Of a DNA stretch of 64,000 bases, positions 3,327 through 19,379 are shown piece by piece. The stretch is taken from IMG/VR virus record IMGVR_UViG_3300042402_002792; one strand, written 5' to 3'. Positions within the stretch are counted from its first letter, which is position 1. Each line of letters starts with the position of its first letter. The notes under the pieces are model-generated. The model did no database searches, was not told the DNA's origin, and saw nothing but the letters and a program-made list of their open reading frames with translations. The translations under genes and the position numbers were made by a program. Source of the DNA: a virus (lineage: Duplodnaviria; Heunggongvirae; Uroviricota; Caudoviricetes).

Positions 3327-3332
3327 AATTAT

Positions 3333-3407
3333 CGCGGGGTACGTCAGTGGCAGACTATCGGGCTCATAACCCGAAAGACGGAGGTTCGAGTCCTTCCCCC
3401 GCAACCA
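3333..3407 (+). tRNA. Initiator tRNA-fMet (anticodon CAT)
   Basis: C1·A72 mismatch. Anticodon stem TCGGG/CCCGA (three G·C pairs next to the loop) with loop CTCATAA. T-arm GGAGG-TTCGAGT-CCTTC. CCA is encoded. Confidence 0.65.
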
Positions 3408-3412
3408 AATAT

Positions 3413-3511
3413 GCCGCCATAGCTTAATGGTAAAGAAGCGAGCTTATACCTCGCCAAAGCACAGGCCAGATAAGCCTGAGTGTGCAGGTTCGAGTCCTGC
3501 TGGCGGCACCA
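3413..3511 (+). tRNA. Oversized (99-nt) tRNA-like gene. The candidate anticodon arm is GCGAG-CTTATAC-CTCGC (anticodon TAT) and is followed by an unusually long (~29-nt) extra arm
   Basis: Perfect acceptor GCCGCCA/TGGCGGC and T-arm GCAGG-TTCGAGT-CCTGC. CCA is encoded. The interior contains a second hairpin, CAGGC-CAGATAA-GCCTG. Identity could not be resolved by eye. Confidence 0.35.
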
Positions 3512-3519
3512 AAATTTAT

Positions 3520-3597
3520 GTAGGGGTGGCAGAGAGGCCCAATGCAGTGGATTGCAAATCCGCAAAACCGTCGGTTCGAATCCGACTCCCTACTCCA
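3520..3597 (+). tRNA. tRNA-Cys (anticodon GCA)
   Basis: Acceptor GTAGGGG/TCCCTAC with discriminator U. Anticodon stem GTGGA/TCCGC with loop TTGCAAA. T-arm GTCGG-TTCGAAT-CCGAC. CCA is encoded. Confidence 0.55.
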
Positions 3598-3620
3598 TAA
3601 TAAAATATAAGTAGTATATT

Positions 3621-3697
3621 GCCCCGATGACGGAATTGGTATACGTGTTGGTCTTAGAAGCCAAATTTTGCGAGTTCGAGTCTCGCTTGGGGCACCA
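3621..3697 (+). tRNA. Class-I tRNA with anticodon TAG, formally Leu(CUA)
   Basis: Acceptor GCCCCGA/TTGGGGC. Anticodon stem TTGGT/GCCAA with loop CTTAGAA. Variable region is 5 nt. T-arm GCGAG-TTCGAGT-CTCGC. CCA is encoded. Confidence 0.45.
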
Positions 3698-3703
3698 AAT
3701 AAT

Positions 3704-3777
3704 GCGGGATTAGTTTAATGGTCAAACGAAACCTTGCCAAGGTTTAGTCAGGAGTTCGATTCTCCTATCCCGCTCCA
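3704..3777 (+). tRNA. tRNA-Gly (anticodon GCC)
   Basis: Perfect acceptor GCGGGAT/ATCCCGC. D-arm GTTT..AAAC. Anticodon stem AAACC/GGTTT with loop TTGCCAA. T-arm AGGAG-TTCGATT-CTCCT. CCA is encoded. Confidence 0.65.
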
Positions 3778-3792
3778 AACATGTAGGTTGCT

Positions 3793-5241
3793 ATGTATAA
3801 AATTGTTGTTGTTGGTGGAGGAACAGCTGGATTAATGGCTGCATCGTTTTTAAAATCTACATATGGTCCTCACGTAGATGTAACTGTAATCTATGATCAT
3901 AAAAATCCAGGAATAGGTGTTGGAGAAAGTTTAACTCCTATAATTTATGAATACTTAACTGCTGTCGGAATTACTAGAGAAGAACTTATTTTAAATGTTA
4001 ATGCTACAGTTAAATTAGGTTTAAAATTTAAGAACTGGTTAAATGACGGCGGGTACTACTGGCATCCATTTGTGCAAAAAGACTCACCTAGAAATGATAT
4101 CGATGCCGCATTTGATCTAGCACATAACACTTATGACTCAGATAATGGCTATAGTAGTTATTTTTTAGAATCAAATCGTATACCTAAACAATCCGGTACA
4201 CAGGCATTACATATTGATTCTGTTCTTTTTGCTAGATATATAGAACACAAATTTAAAGATAGAATTAATATTGTCGATGGTATTGTAGATGAAGTAAATG
4301 TAAGCGAACACAATCATATTACTCACGTTAGATTAACAGACGGTCGAGTATTTGACGGTAACTTTTTTGTTGATGCTAGCGGGATGCAGTATGCATTATT
4401 TAAACACTTAAATGTAAAATGGGTTGACAAATCAGACTGGCTACCAATTGATCGATGTATCCCAAATCCAGTTCCGTGGACATTTACAACACAGCCTACT
4501 TATACTACATCCGAAGCTAGCAAAGACGGATGGATATTACAAGTTCCGTTGAGTAATCGTTGGGGTACTGGGTACCTTTACTCTAGTCAATTTCAACAAG
4601 ATAACCGTGCTCACGATACATTTGATCAGTTTTTAAAAAATAACTACGGCACAGAACTTACAAGCTCAAGAGTAATTAAATTTAAAAGTGGCTTTTGGGA
4701 AGATCAATGGGTTGGTAATTGTATTGCTGTAGGATTGTCAAGTGGGTTTACCGAACCGTTAGAAGCTACAAACATACACCATGTTGTTTATCAATTATGG
4801 ATGTTTACTGAAATGTTTAATTTAGAAATACTTAATTACGATAGAAAAAAATATAATAAAATGATGACCAGTTTTTATAACAATGTCTATTTGTATCTTA
4901 GATTTTGTTATACTACAGGAAGAACCGATAGTGAATTTTGGAAATACATGACAGCAAACGTTCCCGAATCAGTTCGAGACTTAGAAGAAAAAATCTCACG
5001 TAACTCAATGAATACCTACTCATTACCAGGTACTGTGTTTTCGTATCATAACTTTACAAAAGTAGCTCACGGGTTAGGAAAAATTAATAGAATGAGCTAC
5101 CTAAACGAGCTCAGATTACGAAATATGATTGAACAAGCAAGGATTAAAGCAACTAAACTCAAAATTGAAAAATTAGTTGACTATGAGACTAGCATTGATC
5201 ATTTAGAATATATAAAATCGGTCCTTAACTCAACTGGATAG
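3793..5241 (+). CDS. FAD-dependent (tryptophan-type) halogenase-like protein
   Basis: 482 aa. N-terminal GxGxxG FAD-binding fold (VVVGGGTAGLMAASF) and a W-x-W/L-x-IP-like motif (DGWILQVP), giving an overall flavin-halogenase architecture. The 3' end overlaps the next tRNA. Confidence 0.55.
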   Translation: MYKIVVVGGGTAGLMAASFLKSTYGPHVDVTVIYDHKNPGIGVGESLTPIIYEYLTAVGITREELILNVNATVKLGLKFKNWLNDGGYYWHPFVQKDSPRNDIDAAFDLAHNTYDSDNGYSSYFLESNRIPKQSGTQALHIDSVLFARYIEHKFKDRINIVDGIVDEVNVSEHNHITHVRLTDGRVFDGNFFVDASGMQYALFKHLNVKWVDKSDWLPIDRCIPNPVPWTFTTQPTYTTSEASKDGWILQVPLSNRWGTGYLYSSQFQQDNRAHDTFDQFLKNNYGTELTSSRVIKFKSGFWEDQWVGNCIAVGLSSGFTEPLEATNIHHVVYQLWMFTEMFNLEILNYDRKKYNKMMTSFYNNVYLYLRFCYTTGRTDSEFWKYMTANVPESVRDLEEKISRNSMNTYSLPGTVFSYHNFTKVAHGLGKINRMSYLNELRLRNMIEQARIKATKLKIEKLVDYETSIDHLEYIKSVLNSTG

Positions 5242-5295
5242 AGTGCAAGTCTTCGAAACTTGAAGTTAGGGGTTCGAGTCCTCTAGGGCCGGCCA
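5219..5295 (+). tRNA. tRNA-Arg (anticodon TCG)
   Basis: Acceptor CGGTCCT/AGGGCCG. D-arm ACTC..GAGT. Anticodon stem CAAGT/ACTTG with loop CTTCGAA. T-arm AGGGG-TTCGAGT-CCTCT. CCA is encoded. The 5' end overlaps the last 23 nt of the halogenase CDS. Confidence 0.55.
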
Positions 5296-5298
5296 GTT

Positions 5299-5373
5299 GC
5301 CGCTGTAGTTCAATGGATAGAACAAGTTCCTCCTAAGAATTAGATGTAGGTTCGATTCCTGCCAGAGGCGCCA
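5299..5373 (+). tRNA. tRNA-Arg (anticodon CCT)
   Basis: Acceptor GCCGCTG/CAGAGGC with one mismatch. D-arm GTTC..GAAC. Anticodon stem AGTTC/GAATT with loop CTCCTAA. T-arm GTAGG-TTCGATT-CCTGC. CCA is encoded. Confidence 0.55.
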
Positions 5374-5379
5374 AACATG

Positions 5380-5408
5380 TTGACAACGAATCTGCTATTA
5401 TGTATAAT
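5380..5408 (+). promoter_or_regulatory. Perfect sigma70 consensus promoter TTGACA-N17-TATAAT. The predicted start coincides with the 5' end of the tRNA-like gene at 5415
   Basis: TTGACA at 5380-5385, a 17-nt spacer, TATAAT at 5403-5408. Confidence 0.55.
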
Positions 5409-5414
5409 TACATT

Positions 5415-5523
5415 GTAGCCGTAACGCAAATAGGCAAAGCTCCAATAGCAACATTGTATGTTGTGAGGGACGGGGTCGAATATAGTTCGGTAACCCATGG
5501 AGGTTCGAAGCCTCCCGGCTACA
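5415..5523 (+). tRNA. Oversized (109-nt) tRNA-like gene of unresolved identity. A candidate anticodon arm GCAAC-ATTGTAT-GTTGT would give anticodon TGT
   Basis: Perfect acceptor GTAGCCG/CGGCTAC and perfect T-arm GGAGG-TTCGAAG-CCTCC. No CCA is encoded. A long internal hairpin GGGTCGAA-TATAG-TTCGGTAACCC sits in the variable region. The D-region is irregular. Confidence 0.3.
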
Positions 5524-5536
5524 TAGGACATTAAAA

Positions 5537-6133
5537 ATGATTATAAGAAATGTATTTGATACCCCAGTTGTAATACATCATTGTCATGACGCAGAAATAT
5601 TTGCTAACAAATCTATCAGAGATAGTATAGAGTTTGTGTTTGGTCTAGAAGAAATTAGAGAAACTATTGATCCATCTCAAGTAGGAAATGCTTTTACAAC
5701 TTGCAATCATTTTGATAAATTTCCGTTGATCTCTATGCCCGGAACTGAAAACTTATCAGAATGGGTAGCTAGGAAAATATTAGAAAGCAGTAAACACTTT
5801 GGATTTGAAAATTCTACCAAAATAGAATTTTTGAGAACATGGATAAATCTTTACTTCTATGGTTGTGAAGGAACCTGCCATCATCATCCAACAGACATTG
5901 ACGGTGTGGGAATTTTTTATATAAAGGTTCCTTCTAATAGTAGCCAATTAGTTTTTATCCGTGACGGCATCGATGGTACTAAGATTAATCAATATCCACC
6001 AGAACAACTTGCGTTTCAACCTGTTGTACAAGGAGACCTGATTATTCACAATCCTAAGGTGCCACATGCTATTTCTCAACATAAAGCTCACGATTCACGA
6101 ATATGTTTTATATACGAGTTTAAATATCATTAA
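5537..6133 (+). CDS. Hypothetical protein, possibly a divergent 2OG oxygenase-like paralog
   Basis: 198-aa ORF. His-rich motifs (CHHHPTD ... VPHAISQH). An AAGGA-type ribosome-binding site is absent but the gene packing is tight. Confidence 0.4.
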   Translation: MIIRNVFDTPVVIHHCHDAEIFANKSIRDSIEFVFGLEEIRETIDPSQVGNAFTTCNHFDKFPLISMPGTENLSEWVARKILESSKHFGFENSTKIEFLRTWINLYFYGCEGTCHHHPTDIDGVGIFYIKVPSNSSQLVFIRDGIDGTKINQYPPEQLAFQPVVQGDLIIHNPKVPHAISQHKAHDSRICFIYEFKYH

Positions 6134-6222
6134 GGAGAGTTGGCAGAGTGGTAATGCACCGGATTGCTAATCCGCCGTTCATGAAAGTGGGCGCACAGGT
6201 TCGAGTCCTGTACTCTCCGCCA
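6134..6222 (+). tRNA. tRNA-Ser (anticodon GCT), class II
   Basis: Perfect acceptor GGAGAGT/ACTCTCC. Anticodon loop TTGCTAA. Long variable arm. T-arm ACAGG-TTCGAGT-CCTGT. CCA is encoded. Confidence 0.6.
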
Positions 6223-6233
6223 TTATTTGTTAT

Positions 6234-6815
6234 ATGAAAATATTTGATAAAGTTTTAGGTCAAAATGCTTTACAATCTTTACAAAAAGAGATTGTGCATA
6301 GCACAGCATTTCCATGGTATAAAACACTAACAACTTACGATTTGAAAGAACCGAATAGCATCAATGACTATAGTTGGTTTCACTTAGTATCAAAAGAAGG
6401 CGAAGTAGTTTCACAAGTCTATTCGTTGCTGTATCCTATGTTGCTATGTGCATTTGATAATATTAACGAACCTGTTAAAGATTTTATAAGATTACGGTTA
6501 GCATTGCAAACACCGATAGGTCAAAAGTTTGTAAATGATGCTCACACAGACTACGGCTTTGAACACAAGACAGCATTATTATATTTGAACACTTGCGATG
6601 GTAACACAATCATCTACAATGAAGCTTATGATCACAAATCGCAAATAAGTCCACTAGATTATTTAAATAACAACTTAAAAAATAATTTAACTGTATTAAG
6701 TGAAGTTGAACCAGTAGAAAATAGACTAGTGCTGTTTGATGGTTTACGTTATCATTCAAGTCAGCGTCCTATTAACTTTCCTTACAGAATTATTTTAAAC
6801 ATAAATTATAATTAA
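6234..6815 (+). CDS. 2OG-Fe(II) oxygenase-like paralog
   Basis: 193 aa. Motifs AHTD (HxD) and distal LRYHSSQR. Confidence 0.5.
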   Translation: MKIFDKVLGQNALQSLQKEIVHSTAFPWYKTLTTYDLKEPNSINDYSWFHLVSKEGEVVSQVYSLLYPMLLCAFDNINEPVKDFIRLRLALQTPIGQKFVNDAHTDYGFEHKTALLYLNTCDGNTIIYNEAYDHKSQISPLDYLNNNLKNNLTVLSEVEPVENRLVLFDGLRYHSSQRPINFPYRIILNINYN

Positions 6816-6823
6816 TATTTTAT

Positions 6824-6899
6824 TCCCTGATAGCTCAGTCGGTAGAGCGACGGACTGTTAATCCGCAGGTCCCTGGTTCGAGCCCAGGTCGGGGAGCCA
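6824..6899 (+). tRNA. tRNA-Asn (anticodon GTT)
   Basis: Acceptor TCCCTGA/TCGGGGA. D-arm GCTC-AGTCGGTA-GAGC. Anticodon loop CTGTTAA. T-arm CCTGG-TTCGAGC-CCAGG. CCA is encoded. Confidence 0.65.
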
Positions 6900-6914
6900 A
6901 ACAAAGAGGAAATT

Positions 6915-7232
6915 ATGAGCAAAGGTAGTAGACCTCGTCCATATAGTGTTAGTCAAAATACGTTTGCTAGCAACTACGATGCAATTTTTCGCAAGCCCGA
7001 TCCTAGGGTTCGAGAAGAATCTATTCAAGAAGACGAAGCATTTAAAGAATTAGAAAAAAGGAATACAATGAGTCCATCAGTAGAACAAATGAAACAAGGT
7101 ACGTGCGGGTGCGGCCGTAGCCCTACAGGAAACTGTTGTGGGTGGCATGCGCTAACAGAAGAACAATATCAGCAACGTAAAGAACTTTACGAAACTGGTA
7201 AAGCTGATTTGCAAGGTCGCGAAGTTAAGTAA
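6915..7232 (+). CDS. Hypothetical Cys-rich protein
   Basis: 105-aa ORF. Ribosome-binding site AAGAGGA. Cys cluster CGCGRSPTGNCCGWH. Confidence 0.45.
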   Translation: MSKGSRPRPYSVSQNTFASNYDAIFRKPDPRVREESIQEDEAFKELEKRNTMSPSVEQMKQGTCGCGRSPTGNCCGWHALTEEQYQQRKELYETGKADLQGREVK

Positions 7233-7235
7233 TCT

Positions 7236-7865
7236 TTGATGTTAAGCACAGTCCTTGATAAGATTAACACTGACGCTGTTCATTATCAACAGCAGGCCGT
7301 AAGCACTGACATTTTTTCTTGGGAAGAATTAGAACGCTTGTTAAATCTTAGGCCATTTGTTAATCATAAAAGATTTCACATACTTAATGATAAAAACTAC
7401 ACTTGGCATAATCCAGGATGGGCTAGTGACAATGGGTATCCTCCGTCTTTGATACAAGAAGAAATCAAAAAGTATGTTTGCTATTTGAGTGACTGTTCTA
7501 AAGTAAACAAATCAATTAATGAGTTGTGTAAACTGATTGAAAATCAGACAGGCAGCGAAGTTGATGCTCATGTTTATTTTTCGTTTTTCTATCAAGATCA
7601 AGACATAGAAAAATATATACACAAAGATAAATCTAATAATTTAATAATTCAAATTGATGGAGAGACTAACTTTAAGGTATTCGGGACTGATCGAAACAGC
7701 GATATTATCTTAGATGTAATTATGCAACCTGGGGATATGCTTTACATACCTGCAGGATATTGGCACGGTGCGCTAAGTCTGAGTCGTAGATTAAGCTTGA
7801 GTATTCCTATTAGTCCTCATCGAGTTGAAATACAAGAAGATAGACACTGGATACAATTAAAATGA
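7236..7865 (+). CDS. Cupin/JmjC-like protein
   Basis: 209 aa. A motif GDMLYIPAGYWHG typical of cupin/JmjC beta-barrel hydroxylases. Confidence 0.45.
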   Translation: MMLSTVLDKINTDAVHYQQQAVSTDIFSWEELERLLNLRPFVNHKRFHILNDKNYTWHNPGWASDNGYPPSLIQEEIKKYVCYLSDCSKVNKSINELCKLIENQTGSEVDAHVYFSFFYQDQDIEKYIHKDKSNNLIIQIDGETNFKVFGTDRNSDIILDVIMQPGDMLYIPAGYWHGALSLSRRLSLSIPISPHRVEIQEDRHWIQLK

Positions 7866-8479
7866 AATACGCTTACTTTAACCCTACTATTGTAGCAATG
7901 GACGATGTACCTGATGATATTTTTCAATGGTGTGTAAATGCTGTTGAGCAAGCACATCTCAGAGAAGATCTCAATGATGCTGGTAATCCAGTATTAAGTA
8001 TTCGAGGCGGCCAACAAGTACAAATACTGCCTAACGAAATGGGTATAGATATAGAGCCGTTGGCTAGATACATTGAAGATATATGCACTCAATATATTGA
8101 TTCTGTACGTGCAAGTGCCGGCATTACCGATGAATTGCCTGTTAAACCTGTATTAGTTAGTGCATGGACTTTAAAACAAGGTCCAGGAGACTATCAGGCA
8201 CTACATAGTCATGAAGCACACTTGAGCGGTAATATCTACATACAAGTTCCAGAACTTGATCTAGATTCTACTAATACAGATTCGTGTATTGAATTTAGAT
8301 TGCCTACTGTACGTAACCCGGCAAGATTTGTATTCACAGACACTTGGCGGTTCAAACCTGAACGTGCTAAAATAATAATGTTTCCTAGTTATCTTCCACA
8401 CACAGTTTATCCGTGGACGGGTAAAGGGCATAGAATTAGTTTAGCATGGGATGCCAAATTAATTGACAAGAGTATCTAA
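7862..8479 (+). CDS. 2OG-Fe(II) oxygenase-like protein
   Basis: 205 aa. Motifs HSHEAH ... PHTVYP ... RISLAWD (distal His plus RxS). Confidence 0.45.
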   Translation: MKYAYFNPTIVAMDDVPDDIFQWCVNAVEQAHLREDLNDAGNPVLSIRGGQQVQILPNEMGIDIEPLARYIEDICTQYIDSVRASAGITDELPVKPVLVSAWTLKQGPGDYQALHSHEAHLSGNIYIQVPELDLDSTNTDSCIEFRLPTVRNPARFVFTDTWRFKPERAKIIMFPSYLPHTVYPWTGKGHRISLAWDAKLIDKSI

Positions 8480-8491
8480 AAGATATATAAT
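8463..8491 (+). promoter_or_regulatory. Perfect sigma70 consensus promoter TTGACA-N17-TATAAT, placed upstream of tRNA-Thr, the structured RNA and tRNA-Gly
   Basis: TTGACA at 8463-8468, 17-nt spacer, TATAAT at 8486-8491. It is followed by AGACACA, as in the promoter at 10240. Confidence 0.55.
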
Positions 8492-8524
8492 AGACACAAG
8501 TTAGAAATTGTTCTTTAAAAATTT

Positions 8525-8599
8525 GCCGGATTAGCTCAGTGGTAGAGCAACCGCCTTGTAAGCGGTAGGTCGTCAGTTCAATCCCGACATCCGGCACCA
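8525..8599 (+). tRNA. tRNA-Thr (anticodon TGT)
   Basis: Perfect acceptor GCCGGAT/ATCCGGC. D-arm GCTC-AGTGGTA-GAGC. Anticodon stem ACCGC/GCGGT with loop CTTGTAA. T-loop TTCAATC. CCA is encoded. Confidence 0.65.
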
Positions 8600-8902
8600 A
8601 GAAAAACCCCGGTTTACTCTTTTACGTTATATAAAGAGCGTCCCTGTAACGATAGACCAGGGGGTACACTAGGACCTGACCTTACAGTCCCCGTTGGGGG
8701 ATACTGAAAACTGCCTAGGGTGAGGAACGCTAACCTCTTCCAAAAGAAGAAATACGTGGACAGAGTAACCGCTCAGTCTAGGGCTCATGTGGTGTGAGTA
8801 GCTAGACACTTTAATCAAATACATTTGGCTTAACTATAAGTTAAGTTGCAAGGACGGCACACCATCCGCAATGAAAAAGTGACAAGTGTGTTTGATTAAA
8901 GT
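8600..8902 (+). ncRNA. Highly structured ~300-nt non-coding RNA candidate lying between tRNA-Thr and tRNA-Gly
   Basis: No open reading frame. A 21-bp long-range helix (8802-8822 with 8879-8903). A perfect hairpin CTTAACT-ATA-AGTTAAG. Nested hairpins GTCTAGGGCTCA..TGAGTAGCTAGAC. CCCTG..CAGGG and CTCTTT..AAAGAG stems. This resembles the stable RNAs embedded in the T4 tRNA cluster. Confidence 0.35.
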
Positions 8903-8976
8903 GCGGGGTTAGTTTAATGGCAAAACAGCAGATTTCCAATCTTCGGTCGAGAGTTCGATTCTCTCACTCCGCTCCA
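8903..8976 (+). tRNA. tRNA-Gly (anticodon TCC)
   Basis: Acceptor GCGGGGT/ACTCCGC. D-arm GTTT..AAAC. Anticodon loop TTTCCAA. T-arm GAGAG-TTCGATT-CTCTC. CCA is encoded. Confidence 0.6.
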
Positions 8977-8987
8977 AAATATAAATT

Positions 8988-9620
8988 ATGGAATTAATAA
9001 CACATACAGCACCAAAACAAGGTATATCGTTTTTGGTAATTAAAAATTTATACTCTCAAAATGAGTTATTTTTAATCCAAAAAGAGTTAGACTTTCTTTG
9101 GAGTAGTCTTGCTTTTTCAAGAGATGAGGACTATCTAAATGTTGCAAAATTAGATGACGGATCAATATTAGGTAAAAGAAGTGGTGTTTGGTTAGATTTT
9201 TTCTATAACAAACGAGAAAGTTCTAGTATATTACGACTTAATCGAAAACCATTTTCAGACGATACAATAAGAAATACATTTGCTAATTTGAATCCATATC
9301 ATTTTCATTATCTTAAATTAGATTATGATAATACTTTACTTCAGTATTATGAAAATTCGGATTATTATAAACCGCACACTGATCATTCTATGTTTAGTTT
9401 AGTGACATGGTTTCATAAAGATCCAAAAAAATTTACTGGAGGAAATTTTAAGTTTACAGATTTAGACTATACAATTGAAATTGAAAATAATATGTGTGTA
9501 ATCTTTCCAAGTTTCTTGTGGCACGAAGTAGAAGAAATTAAAATAACAGAAACTAGTAAATATGAGCCAAATGGAAGATTTTCAATGACTCAATTTGTAG
9601 TGTATAATCCAACAAAATAG
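8988..9620 (+). CDS. 2OG-Fe(II) oxygenase (prolyl-4-hydroxylase-like pattern)
   Basis: 210 aa. Motifs HTD ... WHEV ... RFS (HxD...H...RxS). Confidence 0.55.
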   Translation: MELITHTAPKQGISFLVIKNLYSQNELFLIQKELDFLWSSLAFSRDEDYLNVAKLDDGSILGKRSGVWLDFFYNKRESSSILRLNRKPFSDDTIRNTFANLNPYHFHYLKLDYDNTLLQYYENSDYYKPHTDHSMFSLVTWFHKDPKKFTGGNFKFTDLDYTIEIENNMCVIFPSFLWHEVEEIKITETSKYEPNGRFSMTQFVVYNPTK

Positions 9621-9694
9621 GACCTTAGCTCAGTTGGTAGAGCGTCTGCCTTACACGCAGAATGTCGTCGGTTCGAACCCGGCAGGTCCTACCA
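9619..9694 (+). tRNA. tRNA-Val (anticodon TAC)
   Basis: Perfect acceptor AGGACCT/AGGTCCT. D-arm GCTC-AGTTGGTA-GAGC. Anticodon stem TCTGC/GCAGA with loop CTTACAC. T-loop TTCGAAC. CCA is encoded. Confidence 0.65.
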
Positions 9695-9701
9695 AAAAAT
9701 T

Positions 9702-9778
9702 CGGAGTGTAGCGCAGTCTGGTAGCGCACCTGGTTTGGGACCAGGGGGTCCAAGGTTCGAATCCTTGTACTCCGACCA
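9702..9778 (+). tRNA. tRNA-Pro (anticodon TGG)
   Basis: Acceptor CGGAGTG/TACTCCG. D-arm GCGC..GCGC. Anticodon stem CCTGG/CCAGG with loop TTTGGGA. T-arm CAAGG-TTCGAAT-CCTTG. CCA is encoded. Confidence 0.65.
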
Positions 9779-9794
9779 TATTTAAGGACTATGT

Positions 9795-9947
9795 ATGCCA
9801 ATGTATGAGACAACTGTAAGAACACCACAAGGTGAAGAAAAGAAGCGAATCTATGCGGATACACCGCAAGAGGCTAAAAAACTTTTTGAAACGTTGTACG
9901 GTGGTCCTCGAGCAGTTCCGTATATTCCAAAAATAGTCGCAAGTTAA
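9795..9947 (+). CDS. Small hypothetical protein of 50 aa
   Basis: Open reading frame MPMYETTVRTPQGEEKKRIYADTPQEAKKLFETLYGGPRAVPYIPKIVAS with an AAGGA ribosome-binding site 6 nt upstream. It sits between two tRNAs and was too short for the ORF track. Confidence 0.35.
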   Translation: MPMYETTVRTPQGEEKKRIYADTPQEAKKLFETLYGGPRAVPYIPKIVAS

Positions 9948-9948
9948 C

Positions 9949-10024
9949 GGGGGATTAGCTCAGCTGGGAGAGCGGTAGCTTTGCAAGCTATAGGTCAACG
10001 GTTCGATCCCGTTATCCTCCACCA
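9949..10024 (+). tRNA. tRNA-Ala (anticodon TGC)
   Basis: Acceptor GGGGGAT/ATCCTCC including a G3·U70. D-arm GCTC-AGCTGGGA-GAGC. Anticodon stem GTAGC/GCTAT with loop TTTGCAA. T-arm AACGG-TTCGATC-CCGTT. CCA is encoded. Confidence 0.65.
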
Positions 10025-10041
10025 ACAAACAGGAGAACGTA

Positions 10042-10242
10042 ATGAAAACGCAAGTTAAAACAAGACCCGTTCGCCTACGTAATATTCGGAATAATCAAGA
10101 AGTTATCTGCGATGATTATACCAATGTTCGGACTATCGACGGGCAGGACTTCGTTGAAGTCCATTTTGAAAATCAAACTCGTAAATTTTGGCTTAACAAA
10201 GCACCCTTACAAAAGGTAAAAGAGAAGTCCAAAAAGAGTTGA
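10042..10242 (+). CDS. Small basic hypothetical protein of 66 aa
   Basis: AGGAG ribosome-binding site 7 nt upstream of the ATG. Lys/Arg-rich. Confidence 0.5.
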   Translation: MKTQVKTRPVRLRNIRNNQEVICDDYTNVRTIDGQDFVEVHFENQTRKFWLNKAPLQKVKEKSKKS

Positions 10243-10268
10243 CAAAGATTAAGATCTATACTATAATA
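10240..10268 (+). promoter_or_regulatory. Perfect sigma70 consensus promoter TTGACA-N17-TATAAT driving a ~500-nt non-coding leader or RNA upstream of the TROVE-like gene
   Basis: TTGACA at 10240-10245, 17-nt spacer, TATAAT at 10263-10268. Confidence 0.55.
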
Positions 10269-10274
10269 GACACA

Positions 10275-10781
10275 TAGCAAGCAGAAATGCTTGTAGAGAG
10301 TTTTAGGATCGGTACAGCAACATTCATATTACTATGGATCGTTGGACCCTATGGTAGTCAGCTGGAGTTGAAAGGTTCGCCTGGAGACTGTGAAGGTTGC
10401 TATTGAAATAGACCAACAAGCACAGAGTGATGGCCTGTGTAAAATAAAAGCAGTCAACAACGATCCTGTTAGTTTTGGATGACTACAGCAATTTAAATCA
10501 ATCGAACTAAAGCTATAGAAGGTGGCCGCGGGGCACAGTAGAAATACTGTTTTAGAAATAGACGCTCAAGGAATAGCTAGGCCGGCAAAGCCCGGATATG
10601 ATTTACATACAGAAAAATATGTAATAGGCAACATGAATGTTGCTAGGGTCTGAGTGCCGTAATTGGTCAGACCAGAAAATAAACAAATTGGCACGATCAT
10701 CCTGTTAAAGTTTTAGAATGTTAACAGCAACTTTAAATTTTCAAGCATATCGAAAAAAAATACATTCTGTGAGGTAATAAA
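10275..10781 (+). ncRNA. Candidate ~500-nt structured non-coding RNA, possibly Y-RNA-like given its Ro60/TROVE-like neighbour, or a long structured 5' UTR
   Basis: No open reading frame of 60 aa or more on the plus strand across ~500 nt downstream of a consensus promoter. Multiple hairpins (CAAGCA-GAAA-TGCTTG, GGTCTGA..TCAGACC, GCAACAT..ATGTTGC). A T-loop-like GGTTCGCC. Two copies of the ATCCTGTTA..TAACAGCAA hairpin motif. Confidence 0.3.
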
Positions 10782-12191
10782 ATGAACGCATTTGTAAACG
10801 CAATCGCAAATCAAGAAGCCCGTACCGCAAACGGTATGAAGGCACGTAAGTCAACAGCTAAGGCTACCGTTGACCTGTTCTACAACATCGGTGCAAGCCG
10901 TGGTAAGGACATCACAGGCGACTTCACAGCCGCTTATGTGGAAAACGCAGACGTAGCATTACGCATCGCACAATGGGCACGTGATGTCCGAGGTGGTGCA
11001 GGTGAACGTCAACTGTTCCGTGATATTCTAGTTCATCTAGAAAAGCGTGACCCAGACGCCGCTTTGGCTCTTCTAAAGAAGATTCCAGAAGTTGGACGTT
11101 GGGATGACATCTTTGTCTTCACCAACCCTGTTCTGAAGTCAGCCGCTTATACCATGTTGGGCGATGCCCTTCGTGCTAATAACGGTCTGGCTGCAAAGTG
11201 GACCCCCCGTAAGGGTCAAATTGCCGCTGAGATTCGTGCCTTCTTTGGCATGACTCCGAAGCAATATCGTAAGAGCCTTGTTGCTCTTACCAAGGTGGTT
11301 GAAACCCAGATGTGTGCTAACGACTGGGATAACATCAACTTTAGCCATGTTCCTTCTGTGGCTGCTCGCAACTACAAGAAGGCATTCAACCGTCACACTC
11401 CTCTGTTCGCAGAGTATGTGGCCAAGTTGGTGGCAGGGGATAAGACTGTTAAGGTTAACGCCAGCGCAATCTTCCCACATGATGTCCTAAAGGGCATCGC
11501 ACACAGCTACACTAAGCTGAACAAGACAGAAACCGACCATGTGATTGCACAATGGGACGCTCTGCCTAACTATGTAGGTGACGCAAGTATCCTACCTCTA
11601 GTTGACGTTTCTGGTTCGATGACAACATCTGTTCCAGGTTCAACTGTTCGCTGTTTAGATGTAGCAGTCGGTCTAGGCTTGTATCTTGCAGATAAGAACA
11701 AGGGTGTGTTCAAGGACACGTTCTTGACTTTCTCAAGCAAGCCACAACTGGCTACTCTAAAGGGTAACATTGTTGCAAAGGTTGACCAAATGTCAAGTAG
11801 CAACTGGGAAATGAGCACTAACTTGCATGCCGCTATGGACAAGATCCTAAGCGTTGCAGTTAAGGGTTCAGTACCGGCTAGTGACATGCCAAAGATGTTA
11901 CTCATCTTGAGTGACATGCAGTTTAACCAATGTGCTCGTTTCGACGACTCAGCAATGCAAATGATTGAACGAAAGTTCGCAGATGCAGGTTACACTGTTC
12001 CGCAAATTGTTTTCTGGAACCTAAACAGTTCTGGCAACGTGCCTGTAAAGGCAGACAAGAGTGGCGCGGCACTGGTAAGTGGTTTTAGTCCAAGCATCAT
12101 GACAGCTCTGTTGTCAGCGGATATGGACCAATTCACTCCAGAAGGTATCATGATGAAGACTGTAATGGTTCCTCGTTATGACCTTAACTAA
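10782..12191 (+). CDS. Ro60/TROVE-like or DUF2828-like protein with a C-terminal vWA (MIDAS) domain
   Basis: 469 aa. MIDAS motif DxSxS (LVDVSGSMTT) within a vWA-like C-terminal half, and a helical N-terminal half. Noticeably GC-richer than its neighbours. AGGTAAT ribosome-binding site. Confidence 0.5.
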   Translation: MNAFVNAIANQEARTANGMKARKSTAKATVDLFYNIGASRGKDITGDFTAAYVENADVALRIAQWARDVRGGAGERQLFRDILVHLEKRDPDAALALLKKIPEVGRWDDIFVFTNPVLKSAAYTMLGDALRANNGLAAKWTPRKGQIAAEIRAFFGMTPKQYRKSLVALTKVVETQMCANDWDNINFSHVPSVAARNYKKAFNRHTPLFAEYVAKLVAGDKTVKVNASAIFPHDVLKGIAHSYTKLNKTETDHVIAQWDALPNYVGDASILPLVDVSGSMTTSVPGSTVRCLDVAVGLGLYLADKNKGVFKDTFLTFSSKPQLATLKGNIVAKVDQMSSSNWEMSTNLHAAMDKILSVAVKGSVPASDMPKMLLILSDMQFNQCARFDDSAMQMIERKFADAGYTVPQIVFWNLNSSGNVPVKADKSGAALVSGFSPSIMTALLSADMDQFTPEGIMMKTVMVPRYDLN

Positions 12192-12210
12192 AAAGTATTA
12201 ACTTTTGAAA

Positions 12211-12236
12211 TAGCACCTTCGGGTGCTATTTTTTTA
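12211..12236 (+). terminator. Rho-independent terminator
   Basis: Hairpin TAGCACC-TTCG-GGTGCTA followed by T7. Confidence 0.6.
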
Positions 12237-12238
12237 GG

Positions 12239-12267
12239 TTGACGTAGCCAAAGTTTGGTGCTATAAT
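12239..12267 (+). promoter_or_regulatory. Perfect sigma70-type promoter TTGACG-N17-TATAAT. The ATG at 12274 lies 6 nt after the -10 element, implying a leaderless transcript
   Basis: TTGACG at 12239-12244, 17-nt spacer, TATAAT at 12262-12267. Confidence 0.5.
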
Positions 12268-12465
12268 ATGTGTATGTACAAAGTAATAAACAAAGAAATA
12301 GAAACAGAATTTCCTAGCTTAGATGCGGCAATGGCCTATGCTAAGACTTTAGATGCTTTTGTTAGTATCACAGGAAGCGAATTTGAAATCGTAGGTAAGT
12401 TTGGCGTTGATGAAGTAGCTGATCCAAACTACGACGGATGGATATCTAGAAAACAAGGAGTGTAA
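12268..12465 (+). CDS. Small hypothetical protein, probably initiating at ATG 12274 as a leaderless mRNA
   Basis: 65-aa ORF. A second in-frame ATG at 12274 coincides with the predicted transcription start. Confidence 0.45.
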   Translation: MCMYKVINKEIETEFPSLDAAMAYAKTLDAFVSITGSEFEIVGKFGVDEVADPNYDGWISRKQGV

Positions 12466-12466
12466 A

Positions 12467-12958
12467 ATGCCGTGGATTGAAAATGTAAGTTTGGGAGATA
12501 TCCCAAAAGGTCGGCATCACCTTGCTGGCGAGAATAGTATGCTAATTCAGATTGTTGATCCCGGCATGGAGTTTCCTCACCCTATGCACAAGTTCAAAGA
12601 GACACATCGATTTCAGTTTCTGGACCTTGAGGTAGGTGATGCATTTGGTGAAGAATTTAAAGTCACCGATGCTCAGGCGGACCTACTTGTCAGACTATTA
12701 CAACATGCATTGGACAAAAGAATGAATGTAGTTGTTCACTGTGTTGCAGGAGTGTGCCGGTCGGGTGCGGTCTGTGAGGTTGGTGTAATGATAGGCTTTA
12801 ATGATACTGAAGTTTTTCGTAGTCCTAACTTAATGGTCAAGCATAAGATGATGAAAGTTTTAGGTTGGACTTATGATGAAAACGAAGCGCACACTATTAA
12901 TGGTGTAATTTTAGATTCTGGGCTTATTGTGCCTAAGAACTACGAAGGTGATATTTAA
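12467..12958 (+). CDS. Dual-specificity (Cys-based, CX5R) phosphatase
   Basis: VVVHCVAGVCRSGAV matches the VHCxAGxxRSG DSP/PTP P-loop signature. 163 aa. Confidence 0.65.
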   Translation: MPWIENVSLGDIPKGRHHLAGENSMLIQIVDPGMEFPHPMHKFKETHRFQFLDLEVGDAFGEEFKVTDAQADLLVRLLQHALDKRMNVVVHCVAGVCRSGAVCEVGVMIGFNDTEVFRSPNLMVKHKMMKVLGWTYDENEAHTINGVILDSGLIVPKNYEGDI

Positions 12959-12973
12959 AGAAAGGAGGGCAAG

Positions 12974-13579
12974 ATGCCTAGTGTATTTTTAGTTAGCGAC
13001 ACGCATTTCGGACATACCGGCGTCTGTCGCTTCACACGTAACGATGGTGTTACAAAGTTACGCCCATGGGATAGTCCTGAAGAAATGGACGAAGCTATGA
13101 TCAAGGCGTGGAACGAGCGAGTTAAACCCACTGACAAGGTCTACCACTTGGGCGATGTTGTCATCAACCGTAAGGCCATGTCAACGTTAGCTCGTTTAAA
13201 CGGCGACAAGGTTTTAATCCGCGGCAACCACGACATCTTCCGTGACGACGAGTACAGACAGTACTTTAGAGAATTACGTGCATACCATGTTATGAACGGA
13301 ATGATCTTAAGTCACATTCCTGTACATAGTGATAGCTTAGGACGTTTTGGAGTTAACATTCACGGACACTTACACGCAAACCGCGTTAAGAAGGCCCGTG
13401 GTGTTGATGCACGTACAGGAGAGATCTTATACAGCGATGAGAACGATGTTCGTTACCATTGTGTCTGCGTAGAGCAAACACCTAACTTTGCTCCTATATT
13501 GTTTGAAGAAGTAATTGCACGGATTGAAGCAGAAGGTGGCACAGTTGGTTTTAAAAACGGCAACGGCCCTACAATGTAA
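12974..13579 (+). CDS. Calcineurin-like metallophosphoesterase
   Basis: Motifs DTHFGH, GDVV, GNHD and GHLH. AAGGAGG ribosome-binding site. Confidence 0.65.
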   Translation: MPSVFLVSDTHFGHTGVCRFTRNDGVTKLRPWDSPEEMDEAMIKAWNERVKPTDKVYHLGDVVINRKAMSTLARLNGDKVLIRGNHDIFRDDEYRQYFRELRAYHVMNGMILSHIPVHSDSLGRFGVNIHGHLHANRVKKARGVDARTGEILYSDENDVRYHCVCVEQTPNFAPILFEEVIARIEAEGGTVGFKNGNGPTM

Positions 13580-13683
13580 AGAAAAAGAATGTCTTATCGT
13601 AAATATTATTTTAAACAAATGATTAGGACCGTTAAGGCATTCTTACTGTATACCAAAGGGTTTGTTTTAAATAGGAAAATATA

Positions 13684-14145
13684 ATGTCAAAATGTTATCA
13701 GTTAATCGGAGTACCGGCAAGCGGAAAAAGTACCTGGGCCGAAGCTCAAGACTGGGCGCATCTTTGTGCCCACATTAGCACAGACAAATGGGTAGAAATC
13801 TTTGCTAAAGAGATTGGCAGTACTTATAGTCAAGTGTTTACAGACTTTATGCCTACTGCTGTAGAACTTATGGCTAAAGAAGTTGTTGTTGCTCGAGACA
13901 TGGGACGAGATATTATTTGGGACCAAACTAGCACTACTGTAAAAAGTCGTACTAAGAAATTTGCTATGTTGCCAGATTATTATCATATTGCTGTGGTATT
14001 TAAAATACCCGAGCATAAAGAACTTTACCGCAGACTACTTAGCCGGCCAGGCAAGGATATTCCAGATCATGTTATTGCCAGCATGATTGCTAATTTCGAA
14101 ATGCCTACAGAAGAAGAAGGATTTAAAGAAATATGGTACGTATAA
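13684..14145 (+). CDS. Polynucleotide 5'-kinase, matching the T4 Pnk/PseT N-terminal kinase domain only
   Basis: Walker A GVPASGKSTWAEA compared with T4 Pnk GCPGSGKSTWAREF. IIWDQTSTT compared with T4 IISDTNLN. 153 aa, about the kinase-domain length. No HAD phosphatase domain is present. Confidence 0.6.
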   Translation: MSKCYQLIGVPASGKSTWAEAQDWAHLCAHISTDKWVEIFAKEIGSTYSQVFTDFMPTAVELMAKEVVVARDMGRDIIWDQTSTTVKSRTKKFAMLPDYYHIAVVFKIPEHKELYRRLLSRPGKDIPDHVIASMIANFEMPTEEEGFKEIWYV

Positions 14146-16299: not shown

Positions 16300-17103
16300 T
16301 TAAGACTTTTTCGGTTTGCTAATTAATTTTGCTATCTGTCCTTCTAGGTCAAATTCCCACCAGCGATGAGTGTTAATTAATTCGCGTTGATTATGATGAT
16401 GGTTATTATGCCAACCAAACCCTAATGTGAGATAACCCACAAGTATGTTATTTTGACTAGTATCAGTCGTATCAAAATTACGATAGTTTAGGAAAGGTAT
16501 GTTCATGTGTGTTATACTACTGACAATATTTTCTCTTGTGTGTTCTAAAATAGCAGGCAGTAGATACAAACTTAGGGCTAGGCTAAGATCAATATATGCC
16601 AGTGCAAGGAAGACAATCCAGTTAATCTTTATAAAGTGTTTACTAATCCACATCAAGAACGGGTCTTTGAACACACGCCTTGAACAATAATTTTGTAAAC
16701 TAATAACCTTGTTAGTGCTTTCTTTTAGTCTGTAGATTAAAAAACTTTGTAGAAATCCATACTGACTAGGACTGCTAGGATCTGCAGGAAGATCTGATAT
16801 CTTATGATGCTTCTGATGAATAGCTACCCAAAAATGTATTGGAGCAAAGCCCCCTAACGTACTAAGAACAGCTAGGGTATACTCTACAGGTTTCCATGTT
16901 TCAAATTGTCTGTGGGCAAAAAGTTTATGACTACCTACACCGTTTCCTATAGGACCAACAAGGAACCATGCGAGCACGACCAACCACCAGTTGATTGTTA
17001 AATGCCCTAGATAAACAGCTATTAACATCATCACAGCTATGATGTGCATGGGCAACCAGTATCTCCAAAAATATCTATTCATAGTATTAAAAAATATTGT
17101 CAT
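16300..17103 (-). CDS. Membrane fatty-acid desaturase
   Basis: Three His boxes (HKLFAHRQF, HQKHHK, HNNHHH) and multiple transmembrane segments. Confidence 0.65.
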   Translation of the reverse strand: MTIFFNTMNRYFWRYWLPMHIIAVMMLIAVYLGHLTINWWLVVLAWFLVGPIGNGVGSHKLFAHRQFETWKPVEYTLAVLSTLGGFAPIHFWVAIHQKHHKISDLPADPSSPSQYGFLQSFLIYRLKESTNKVISLQNYCSRRVFKDPFLMWISKHFIKINWIVFLALAYIDLSLALSLYLLPAILEHTRENIVSSITHMNIPFLNYRNFDTTDTSQNNILVGYLTLGFGWHNNHHHNQRELINTHRWWEFDLEGQIAKLISKPKKS

Positions 17104-17129
17104 ACAGTATTTAACCTATAAATATTTTC

Positions 17130-18614
17130 ATGAAGAAAAATATACATGCATTGCTTATTGGAAGTATTGATTTTGATTTAGTATCTCGGCCTATAGGATT
17201 ATTTAGACTTAGAACTGCTGCTGAAGATCAAGGATTTGATGTTGAGGTAATTGACTATAGTTGGTGTATTAGCGAAAATGAAATGTTAGCCATATGTGAT
17301 CACTGTATAGGAGACAATACATTAGTCTTTGGAATTAGCGGTGTCTGGTGGTCATTTTTAGGTCTAGACGCAGGTACAAAAAAACATTCATGGGCGTGTG
17401 AAAGTTTTTTTAATACATTTAAGAAAAAATATCCGCATGTAAAAATAGTACTAGGGTCGCCGCCAACTGGAATGAATATACCTCGAGTGTTAAAAGATAA
17501 TTCTGATTGGGTTTTTAGCGGATTTTCTGATCAAAGTTTTCCAGAACTGCTTAAAAAACTATCTGGACAAGATTCTACTTTAAAATATTTTAAAGAAAAT
17601 AATCATTATGTAGTTAATAGTAATAGAGATCATATAACGCACGACATGTCAACAATACAGACAAAATGGAAAAAATCTGATGGGTGGACTGAACATCAAC
17701 CTATCCCATTAGAGTTAAGTAGAGGTTGTATTTTTAAATGCGCTTTTTGTAACCATCCATTTCTTGGAAAAAAGTCTTTTGACTATATTAGATCGTCAGA
17801 AAGCATTGCAGACGAATTATCACAAAATTATGAGTTGTTCGGGACTACTAGATACCTATTACTTGATGACACTATGAATGATAGTTTAGAAAAGTTAGAC
17901 CGATTAGACAAGGCTATTGAATTATCTAAAATTCCAAATTTTGAATTCTGTGCCTATATTAAACCAGAAACAATCGTTGCTAACCCTAGCATGATTGAAA
18001 AATTAAAACATCTAGGGTTAAGAGGCGGCTTTGTCGGTATCGAAAGTTTTAATATGCCAGCTAGAAAGATCATAGGAAAAGGGATGGATATTGACAAAGT
18101 TAACGACGTGTGTGCTAAACTAGTATCTCAAAGTAACGCAAAACTTTTTTGTAGTTTAATTTTAGGTCTACCTGGTGATAAATTAGAAGATGCTGATAAA
18201 TGGTTAGACTTTCTAAAAGCAAATAAAAACGATCTTTATTCTTGCTGGAATATGCATCCTTTAGGAATTATGGGAGAGGTTGGAGAGAATGGCGCAAGTT
18301 TAATCGAAAAAAATCCAGAAAAATTTGGATACACATTACTAGGATTTAATCCATCTCAAAATATATGGAATTGGAAGAATGAGAATATGTCTAATATCTC
18401 AGCCAGTCTTAAAGCCAATCAGTTTAGACATAACAGTGCAGGGTATGTAACTGCCGGAGGGTGGGCTGTTGGTAGTCACTGGTATATAGGATCCAGTGAC
18501 GATGTCATTGATAATCAAGAGTTAAAATTAGATAGGCTTGCTAAAGCTACTTCTGCTATTAGTGTTGACCGTAAAAAACAGATTTTGCAATTTTTAAATT
18601 ATTTTGAAAAATAA
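17130..18614 (+). CDS. B12-binding-domain radical SAM enzyme
   Basis: 494 aa. CxxxCxxC (RGCIFKCAFCNH) following an N-terminal Rossmann-like, B12-binding-type region. Confidence 0.55.
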   Translation: MKKNIHALLIGSIDFDLVSRPIGLFRLRTAAEDQGFDVEVIDYSWCISENEMLAICDHCIGDNTLVFGISGVWWSFLGLDAGTKKHSWACESFFNTFKKKYPHVKIVLGSPPTGMNIPRVLKDNSDWVFSGFSDQSFPELLKKLSGQDSTLKYFKENNHYVVNSNRDHITHDMSTIQTKWKKSDGWTEHQPIPLELSRGCIFKCAFCNHPFLGKKSFDYIRSSESIADELSQNYELFGTTRYLLLDDTMNDSLEKLDRLDKAIELSKIPNFEFCAYIKPETIVANPSMIEKLKHLGLRGGFVGIESFNMPARKIIGKGMDIDKVNDVCAKLVSQSNAKLFCSLILGLPGDKLEDADKWLDFLKANKNDLYSCWNMHPLGIMGEVGENGASLIEKNPEKFGYTLLGFNPSQNIWNWKNENMSNISASLKANQFRHNSAGYVTAGGWAVGSHWYIGSSDDVIDNQELKLDRLAKATSAISVDRKKQILQFLNYFEK

Positions 18615-19369: not shown

Positions 19370-19379
19370 TCAATTTAGA

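Follow-up and report, generated by a model that had tools for sequence, protein, structure and literature searches.

Positions 10275–10781 of a 64,000-nucleotide (nt) stretch of DNA from a virus of the Caudoviricetes (IMG/VR record IMGVR_UViG_3300042402_002792; the whole stretch is called the window here) encode a structured RNA whose conservation is confirmed and lies far beyond chance. A preliminary description, made from the DNA sequence alone, had proposed a structured RNA at this place, possibly related to the Y RNAs that accompany Ro60 proteins. A conserved, covarying RNA is indeed present. Instead of a single RNA dotted with hairpins, however, it is a row of three tandem modules that share a closing-helix signature, immediately 5' of a gene for a Ro60-like protein. 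We consider it probable that the three modules are Y-RNA-like, that their partner is the Ro60 paralogue encoded downstream, and that the third module serves in addition as an operator.

The arrangement of the leader RNA and the gene that follows it is as listed.

10239–10267, plus strand: sigma-70-type promoter, TTGACA-17-TATAAT, agreeing with the consensus at 12 of 12 positions and the top site in 9000–12500.
10278–10293, plus strand: 5'-terminal hairpin CAAGCA-GAAA-UGCUUG with a GNRA loop, read from the sequence.
10305–10468, plus strand: module 1; helix 10305–10311 (AGGAUCG) with 10461–10467 (CGAUCCU), spacer GU, ACAGCAA at 10314–10320, G at 10468.
10476–10704, plus strand: module 2; helix 10476(7)–10482 (UGGAUGA) with 10697–10703 (UCAUCCU), spacer CU, ACAGCAA at 10485–10491, G at 10704.
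10715–10769, plus strand: module 3, minimal; helix 10715–10721 (AGAAUGU) with 10762–10768 (ACAUUCU), spacer UA, ACAGCAA at 10724–10730, G at 10769.
10771–10784, plus strand: Shine-Dalgarno sequence GAGG (10771–10774), beginning 2 nt past module 3, and start codon (10782–10784) of the Ro60-like gene, read from the sequence.
10782–12191, plus strand: gene for a 469-amino-acid (aa) Ro60-like protein (Pfam DUF2828 and DUF7788) with a TROVE-like helical ring and a vWA domain carrying a DxSxS MIDAS motif.
12207–12232, plus strand: intrinsic terminator closing the unit of leader and gene.

Behind the 5' GNRA hairpin, the leader is made up of three modules, all built on one short signature. In each module a helix of 7 base pairs (bp) joins the ends (5'-AG plus 5 nt with 5 nt plus CU-3'), the 5' strand is followed by a 2-nt spacer and the motif ACAGCAA, and a G stands after the 3' strand. 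The A-U and G-C base pairs of this closing helix are conserved and the other five are free to covary; the nucleotides directly after the 3' strand, G(U), are unpaired. Repeat analysis recovers the same pattern as three copies of GUUUU(A)G-N6-7-ACAGCAA at 10300, 10473 and 10710. Between these constant borders the modules differ greatly. Module 1 (164 nt) holds a structured interior of 140 nt that includes a UUCG hairpin at 10373–10382, and module 2 (229 nt) an interior of 205 nt with several hairpins, its closing helix having 6 bp in the window and 7 bp in relatives with an A at the first position. The interior of module 3 is only 31 nt long and A/U-rich, and the module adjoins the ribosome-binding site. 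The leader as a whole (507 nt) has a minimum free energy of −128 kcal/mol and folds somewhat better than its shuffles (z = −2.24).

This anatomy changes how several details of the preliminary description are to be read. The 7-bp stems it reported are real, but they are long-range closing helices and not local hairpins. A hairpin motif said to occur twice and to recur in the tRNA clusters does recur there (at 276–332 and 501–617), but the region holds three copies of it (ACAGCAA at 10314, 10485 and 10724). The GNRA-loop hairpin is as described, and relatives keep such a hairpin on different stems, for example GCAAG-GAAA-CUUGC and GUUAA-GAAA-UUAAC; it would stabilise the 5' end. The T-loop-like GGTTCGCC (10374–10381) is present as a sequence but belongs to an AGG-UUCG-CCU tetraloop hairpin, which alternates with GGG-CUUG-CCY in relatives. 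Three further structural candidates were rejected: a CRISPR-like repeat, suggested by the start GUUUUAG, is incompatible with the spacings of 171 and 239 nt and with the paired architecture; a pairing between ACAGCAA and UUGCU, considered for modules 1 and 2, fails because the partner is not conserved; and only one U-G pair can be added when the closing helix is extended into its flanks.

Conservation was assessed in 80 IMG/VR loci whose product is 85–100% identical to the downstream protein, from which 48 unique leaders were aligned. The module helices are kept in all 48, although their sequences differ. Covariation was counted formally in 20 diverse leaders, whose segments were delimited from the sequence alignment alone, with no use made of pairing. 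Every one of the 418 cells of the three closing helices pairs; double changes occur at 10 of the 21 pairs (44 cells) and there are no one-sided changes, whereas a control in which the partner strand was slid by 1–3 columns gave 33–50% pairing and a single compensatory cell at most. Helix 1 is 100% paired, with 3 of 7 pairs doubly changed (variants AGGAUCG, AGAUUAG, AGGUUAG and AGGCUAG), as is helix 2 (AGGAUGA, AGGAUAG and AGGAUGG) and helix 3, in which 5 of 7 pairs are doubly changed (AGAAUGU, AGGUUAU, AGAAUGC and UGAAUGC). The interiors show the same behaviour: helices 10341–10363/10395–10417 and 10420–10428/10433–10440 of module 1 covary, and hairpins of module 2 carry compensatory changes, for instance 10603–10608/10619–10624, 10627–10633/10638–10644 and 10647–10653/10667–10673. 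Covariation among homologous phage loci, the check that had been proposed for this RNA, is strong, and the RNA is conserved. The conserved upstream regions are also mosaic. Since some relatives have no module 2, or have other interiors between the same borders, the modules behave as exchangeable cassettes.

In one close relative (locus L001, IMGVR_UViG_3300008111_001716, 2900–3003) about 46 nt are duplicated, comprising the 3' half of module 3, the ribosome-binding site and the start of the gene (its first 18 nt), giving two candidate 3' strands and two start regions.

The promoter had been recognised in the preliminary description, which placed it one nucleotide off, at 10240–10268; from its position transcription is expected to start at about 10274. 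A sigma-70-type promoter occupies the equivalent place, 290–565 nt 5' of the ATG, in nearly all homologous loci, and its spacer sequence differs among them. The longest open reading frame (ORF) in 10275–10781 has 44 codons' worth of product (44 aa) and the next credible one begins at 10782, which agrees with the earlier statement that no plausible ORF is present. Leaders of relatives differ by insertions and deletions that are not multiples of three and by swaps of whole modules, and a coding reading was discarded because such indels and mosaicism are incompatible with it. Because the promoter is followed by no credible ORF before 10782 and the terminator lies at 12207–12232, the promoter, an RNA of about 510 nt, one gene and the terminator form a single transcription unit. 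The next promoter 3' of the terminator is at 12239–12267. A DNA comparison with sequenced phages at blastn sensitivity found no similarity. Upstream of the unit, a 66-aa ORF (10042–10242) has its TGA stop (10240–10242) within the −35 hexamer of the leader promoter; only some relatives retain this ORF and the DNA that encodes it.

The downstream protein had been called Ro60-like, and this is right at the level of the fold. A Pfam search of the protein detected DUF2828 and DUF7788 only, and no TROVE domain, and phmmer found no match to it in the PDB. The residues D275, S277 and S279 of the DxSxS motif are invariant among homologues, and a profile built from 15 homologues from distant phages placed Ro60/TROVE chains first in the PDB, weakly (E = 0.014–0.07) and over the vWA/MIDAS region only. 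An AlphaFold (AF2) model calculated on a 58-sequence alignment has a predicted local distance difference test score (pLDDT) of 87.4 and a predicted template modelling score (pTM) of 0.87. When this model was compared with the PDB by Foldseek, the top 12 matches were all full-length Ro60/TROVE structures, from Thermus phage phiLo, Xenopus, human and Deinococcus, with about 500–550 columns aligned, E-values from 3e-8 to 7e-5 and query-normalised TM-scores of 0.37–0.64 (at least 0.46 in 11 cases); the best matches include 9kop and 9l5y. On the evidence of the model, the protein is best described as a structural paralogue of Ro60, a member of DUF2828 and not a TROVE-annotated orthologue. The DUF2828 family also occurs in eukaryotes, since the annotation of phage Aeh1 describes its DUF2828 protein as similar to Arabidopsis T31B5.30 and papers that mention DUF2828 mostly concern plants.

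Homologues of the protein are found in at least 706 phage records from more than 30 host genera, and also in many metagenomic contigs; annotations of DUF2828/DUF7788 genes go no further than 'hypothetical' or labels given by resemblance, 'RNA-binding' and 'Ro-like'. We sampled 15 cultured phages at 28–49% protein identity and scanned the flanks of their genes. In 12 of the 15, modules lie on the gene strand within about 0.5 kilobases (kb) of the DUF2828 gene. They stand directly 5' of it in Synechococcus phage BUCT-ZZ01 (three, in tandem), Stenotrophomonas phage DLP_6 (one), Sinorhizobium phage phiM12 (one), Enterococcus phage EF1 (one), Aeromonas phage LAh_9 (six to seven), Campylobacter phage NCTC12673 (two), Listeria phage LMSP-25 (three) and Bacillus phage Thrax1 (three, behind a TTGACA/TATAAT promoter), and directly 3' of it in Mycobacterium phage DuncansLeg (three), Staphylococcus phage S-CoN_Ph3 (three) and a Felixounavirus (four, in the tRNA cluster next to it). 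The module is therefore found beside same-strand DUF2828 genes in phages of Proteobacteria, Cyanobacteria, Firmicutes, Actinobacteria and Campylobacterota. DLP_6 and BUCT-ZZ01 carry further modules at a greater distance from the gene; those of DLP_6 are in a tRNA cluster, each starting about 10 nt past a tRNA. In Vibrio phage vB_ValM_R11Z (L084, 2440–2500) an ACAGCAA stands about 25 nt 5' of the DUF2828 start, behind a promoter-like TTTACA...TATAAT and with no convincing 7-bp closing helix; this site may be a degenerate or differently built operator.

A strict scan for the module was made in 80 loci from bacterial and archaeal genome assemblies (327 kb). Modules on the gene strand numbered 97 upstream of the gene and 8 downstream; only 4 lay inside it and 4 on the opposite strand. 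A covariance model (R1) was also built from 35 short modules. Among the genome loci outside its training set it gave 13 matches at E <= 1e-4, all of them on the plus strand and upstream of the gene; in the window, outside the training sequences, only 501–617 scored below E = 1 (28.6 bits, E = 0.0015). Module 3 scores 48.5 bits with R1 but is itself a training sequence. These distributions bear on another idea, in which each module is a miniature mobile cassette, a DNA repeat, selfish or recombinogenic, that moves sequence between phages but has no function at the RNA level. Mosaic leaders with alternative interiors between identical borders, some of them without module 2, are what such an element would leave behind. 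It would hardly show so strict a strand bias, however (105 flanking modules share the strand of the gene and 4 lie on the other), RNA pairing is maintained by compensatory changes, conservation extends to the single-stranded motif, and no DNA-level terminal repeats extend beyond the 7-bp helix. We regard this explanation as very improbable.

The window contains five modules in total, all on the plus strand and all within the region of the tRNA genes and the DUF2828 gene. The two outside the leader are the following.

276–332, plus strand: free-standing minimal module between tRNA-Ile and tRNA-Gln, AGGAUGC-UA-ACAGCAA-33 nt-GCAUCCU-G.
501–617, plus strand: module between tRNA-Val and tRNA-His, with a 93-nt interior that forms a tRNA mimic in YrlA order.

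The interior of 501–617 presents, in this order, an anticodon-arm-like hairpin, a T arm, a closed acceptor-like hairpin and a D arm, and 538–605 matches the Rfam YrlA model with 33.4 bits (E = 1.2e-5). In the window the loop of the acceptor-like hairpin reads CCA and the 'anticodon' is UGU, and ARAGORN calls a 76-nt tRNA-Thr(UGU) when the two halves are rotated. Both points would fit a circularly permuted tRNA gene with a circularisation or processing signal, as which this module, and by extension the family, might be read; the other possibility considered is a small self-cleaving ribozyme. Related contigs, however, vary the 'anticodon' (UGU, UAU, UAA and UCU) and close the acceptor hairpin with UUCA or other non-CCA loops, which rules out a working permuted tRNA at 501–617. 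For a ribozyme, minimal modules of about 35–55 nt with seven conserved unpaired bases (such as phiM12 2450–2484) are too small to hold any known fold, and the Rfam scans gave no match to a ribozyme family. The permuted tRNA or ribozyme is the least credible of the alternatives considered and can practically be set aside. Because its relatives vary both the 'anticodon' and the acceptor loop, 501–617 is a YrlA-type tRNA mimic.

Interiors that resemble YrlA, with T arm, acceptor hairpin and D arm in that order, are found as well in Felix-like, Bacillus and Mycobacterium phages. Among 63 distinct modules from IMG/VR tRNA clusters roughly one in four has a YrlA-like interior, and all 63 have the G after the 3' strand. 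Other modules score 27.3 bits (L093) and 37.5 bits (L090) with the Rfam YrlA model. The latter, in the tRNA cluster of Bacillus phage vB_BanS-Thrax1 (L090, 215–340), has a YrlA-like interior that aligns over the full model with the best YrlA score found here, and carries the variant ACAGCUA; the motif thus seems to tolerate some change.

The frequent position of modules among tRNA genes suggests another explanation, namely that long phage transcripts of tRNA regions use them as signals for processing or punctuation, or that a host factor (an RNase or an RNA chaperone, for example) binds them there, and that they are linked to DUF2828 only by sharing that region. Many modules do begin 4–10 nt past the 3' end of a tRNA and end about 10 nt before the next one, and their A/U-rich linkers (AGUUUU, GUUA) resemble what we take to be RNase E-type sites. 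Against this, arrays flank the gene with no intervening tRNA gene in Aeromonas phage LAh_9, Staphylococcus phage S-CoN_Ph3 and, downstream, Mycobacterium phage DuncansLeg; the T4 tRNA cluster has no module in the 8 kb examined; and the same motif is found over five host phyla with differing RNases and chaperones, which favours a reader encoded by the phage. We judge such signals to be an unlikely explanation of the family. The stable RNAs rnaC and rnaD of T4 were considered as members and rejected, being without the module.

A third alternative concerns the leader itself, which might be a purely cis-acting 5' untranslated region of the DUF2828 mRNA (a translational operator, a ligand or temperature sensor, or a stability element) from which no trans-acting RNA is made. 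No terminator separates the RNA from the gene, and module 3 abuts the Shine-Dalgarno sequence, as the last module does in several other lineages. Modules nevertheless stand away from start codons, at 276 and 501 in the window, in DLP_6, in the Felixounavirus and 3' of the gene in Mycobacterium and Staphylococcus phages. Modules 1 and 2 hold large domains that covary on their own and would be superfluous in a simple operator, and relatives swap or drop whole modules yet keep module 3. A leader acting only in cis is in our estimation improbable, to about the same degree as the processing signals.

We favour a reading in which the modules are Y-RNA-like, because they combine the four elements of bacterial Y RNA design: the ends form a stem, a short conserved motif lies on its 5' side, the effector domain varies and in some cases mimics a tRNA, and the RNA stands beside a gene for a Ro60-fold protein, on the same strand. 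In such a system the closing helix, ACAGCAA and G(U) would be the putative binding site of the co-encoded DUF2828/DUF7788 protein, and the variable interiors (140 and 205 nt in the leader, a tRNA mimic in siblings) would act as effector domains like those of Y RNA and YrlA. Module 3 has hardly any interior and ends next to the Shine-Dalgarno sequence, and the last module ends 11–22 nt 5' of the start codon in six lineages out of the nine cultured phages that have upstream modules; for these reasons module 3 in this lineage is most likely also an operator through which the protein would repress its own translation. Free-standing modules in tRNA clusters could be released as small RNAs by ordinary tRNA processing. 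By analogy with Ro60, Y RNA and PNPase, the downstream role would probably be RNA quality control or repair, or the recruitment of a host exoribonuclease.

In bacteria, Ro60 (Rsr) is found with YrlA and Y RNAs, in which a tRNA mimic is built from a T arm, an acceptor hairpin and a D arm (Chen et al. 2014, PMC4201824). The phage locus resembles these systems in that the RNA shares the strand of a gene for a Ro60-fold protein and lies no more than a few hundred bases from it, with several RNAs per locus. As in bacterial Y RNAs, the ends pair into a closing stem (here the covarying 7-bp helix) and a short conserved motif stands on the 5' side; as in YrlA, the effector domain is variable and some members have a tRNA mimic. 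It differs from YrlA in its protein, which is DUF2828/DUF7788 and not TROVE and is similar only by fold and a weak profile match, and in its motif, which is ACAGCAA with the AG/CU base pairs and a 3' G and not GNCGAA(N)G. Modules 1–3 moreover lack the tRNA-like domain (T arm, acceptor-like stem-loop and D arm) and are fused in tandem to an mRNA, and all scores fall below the Rfam gathering threshold; for YrlA (RF02553) this is 69 bits, the best score in the window being the 33.4 bits of the sibling module. The preliminary description had likened the position to bacterial YrlA and Y-RNA loci. The same-strand modules do end 13 nt before the Ro60-fold gene, well inside the distance of about 4 kb taken as the criterion for such a locus, but the gene is a DUF2828 paralogue.

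A further parallel is Thermus phage phiLo, in which two Y-like RNAs (Yrl1 and Yrl2) lie upstream of a Ro60 gene and have been found experimentally to bind the protein (PMC12135203). Both phages encode a Ro60-fold protein with Y-like RNAs immediately upstream. The Ro60 of phiLo is a recognisable TROVE protein and its RNAs have a CGAA motif, however, so that the window differs in both protein family and RNA signature, and the DUF2828 system is far wider, its gene being carried by more than 700 phage records.

Several results weigh against the Y-RNA-like reading. A scan with the YrlA and Y_RNA models, suggested in the preliminary description, gave no match at E <= 10 in 10000–10900, and the GNCGAA(N)G motif, by which known bacterial Ro60 sites are recognised, is present at the corresponding position in none of the modules, (A)CAGCAA being conserved instead. 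No clear module lies within 2.5 kb of the gene in 3 of the 15 sampled phages (Vibrio R11Z, Erwinia pEa_SNUABM_44 and Aeromonas Aeh1), and 24 of 76 genome loci are without a strict module. The last module is 74–92 nt upstream of the gene in Listeria and Bacillus phages, and modules lie 3' of it in Mycobacterium and Staphylococcus phages. Since the last module does not always adjoin the Shine-Dalgarno sequence, autoregulation cannot be the general function. Finally, a host factor and not the phage protein could read the motif. In favour of the Y-RNA-like reading stand the Ro60 fold, the covariation, the co-localisation of modules with DUF2828 genes, the YrlA-type siblings and the precedent of phiLo; what did not hold was any match to the YrlA and Y_RNA models or to GNCGAA. 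The earlier interpretation was correct as to kind, a Y-RNA-like companion of a Ro60-like gene, and mistaken on several details.

Type III toxin-antitoxin loci of the ToxIN type consist of a promoter, tandem RNA repeats and the gene of a protein that binds the repeats. The phage locus is like them in having one promoter, tandem structured RNA units and a protein gene, so that RNA and protein come from one transcript. Its units vary in length and interior, however, its protein has a Ro60 fold and is not an endoribonuclease, the window has no terminator between array and gene, and there is no evidence of toxicity.

At the gathering threshold, Rfam detects only tRNAs in the window, and by E-value nothing better than E = 0.4 within 10000–10900. 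The only Rfam family that matches the short phage modules, and always over its full model, is Dicty_Class_I_RNA (20.9–29.6 bits). Scores are 20.9 bits for 10716–10769, 25.1 bits (E = 0.014) for 277–332, and 29.6 and 28.0 bits in Aeromonas phage LAh_9, and the alignments at 277–332, 10716–10769 and L086 2053–2189 cover the full model; the gathering score of 41.5 bits is reached by no phage module. Dictyostelium Class I RNAs (RF01414) start with (A)AG, have a 6-bp covarying stem that joins the ends, a variable, A/U-rich remainder and a CUGU end, and are about 60 nt long (Kjellin et al. 2021, PMC7919456). An 11-nt motif, CCUUACAGCAA, adjoins the 5' strand, the C of CUGU pairs with the 5' G, and these authors found the RNAs only in dictyostelids (PMC7919456). 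The phage modules, in the window and in other phages, have the comparable covarying arrangement UAG/AAG plus 5 bp ... 5 bp plus CU-GU. The last 7 nt of CCUUACAGCAA (ACAGCAA) are identical in the phage motif, including three of the five most conserved positions (C9, A10 and A11), and its first 4 nt are replaced by a variable 2-nt spacer; the spacer before ACAGCAA is 3 nt in Class I RNAs and 2 nt in the phage. In length, module 3 and 276–332 (about 55 nt) fall within the range of Class I RNAs (42–65 nt), in contrast to modules 1 and 2 at 164 and 229 nt. Class I RNAs differ further in being reported only from dictyostelids, in having promoters of their own (DUSE) where the phage has a bacterial-type promoter, and in that their only confirmed partner is Rnp1A, a protein with RNA recognition motifs. 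We treat the likeness as a lead and not as a finding, since it may reflect homology, convergence on a shared reader or coincidence. That the module is the cognate RNA ligand of the whole DUF2828/DUF7788 Ro60-like branch, with the dictyostelid Class I RNAs as members or analogues, is a more far-reaching proposal that we put forward only as speculation and consider doubtful.

Directly 3' of the Ro60-like gene, 12467–14145 encodes a DSP-type phosphatase, a metallophosphoesterase and an AAA_33 P-loop kinase. Similar neighbours are found in distant phages: a kinase and a metallophosphoesterase in DLP_6 (L082), a metallophosphatase in Bacillus phage Thrax1 (L090), and a phosphohydrolase and an RtcB ligase in Listeria phage LMSP-25 (L092). 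This neighbourhood may point to the healing or repair of RNA ends. Elsewhere in the window, tRNA genes in 1359–9620 are interleaved with at least seven genes of the 2OG-Fe(II)-oxygenase/JmjC type and a tryptophan-halogenase-like gene (3793–5241). Within that region Rfam finds a 96-nt tRNA at 3413–3508 (59.5 bits) which ARAGORN does not call and which may hold a long insert or an intron. Three genes of the fatty-acid-desaturase family lie together with a radical-SAM gene at 16300–20165 (minus strand) and 17130–18614 (plus strand), an unusual auxiliary metabolic set for a phage.

The RNA belongs to no Rfam family, YrlA and Y_RNA included, and its widespread signature, attached to a distinct protein family, appears undescribed; in literature on permuted tRNAs of phages, on DUF2828 and on ACAGCAA in phage or tRNA settings, no description of the motif was found. 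Together the modules would make up a large class of small phage RNAs, tRNA mimics among them, which current RNA family libraries overlook because a variable interior separates the parts that are conserved. A searchable signature that travels with the gene over five host phyla offers a concrete and testable partner for the DUF2828/DUF7788 family, and would extend the principle of Ro60 and its Y RNAs, a closing stem for the protein and a variable effector domain, to a second protein family. The placing of the system in phage tRNA regions, beside a kinase, a phosphatase and, in a Listeria phage, RtcB, makes a role in the repair or quality control of tRNA or other RNA testable. If the more far-reaching proposal is true, there would be a second, very widespread ribonucleoprotein of the Ro/Y type, and the Class I RNAs, whose function has been unknown since 2004, would be read by a related protein or have been acquired from bacteria or phages. 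The detailed match of Class I RNAs to the modules gives a new experimental handle on a 20-year-old orphan class of RNA.

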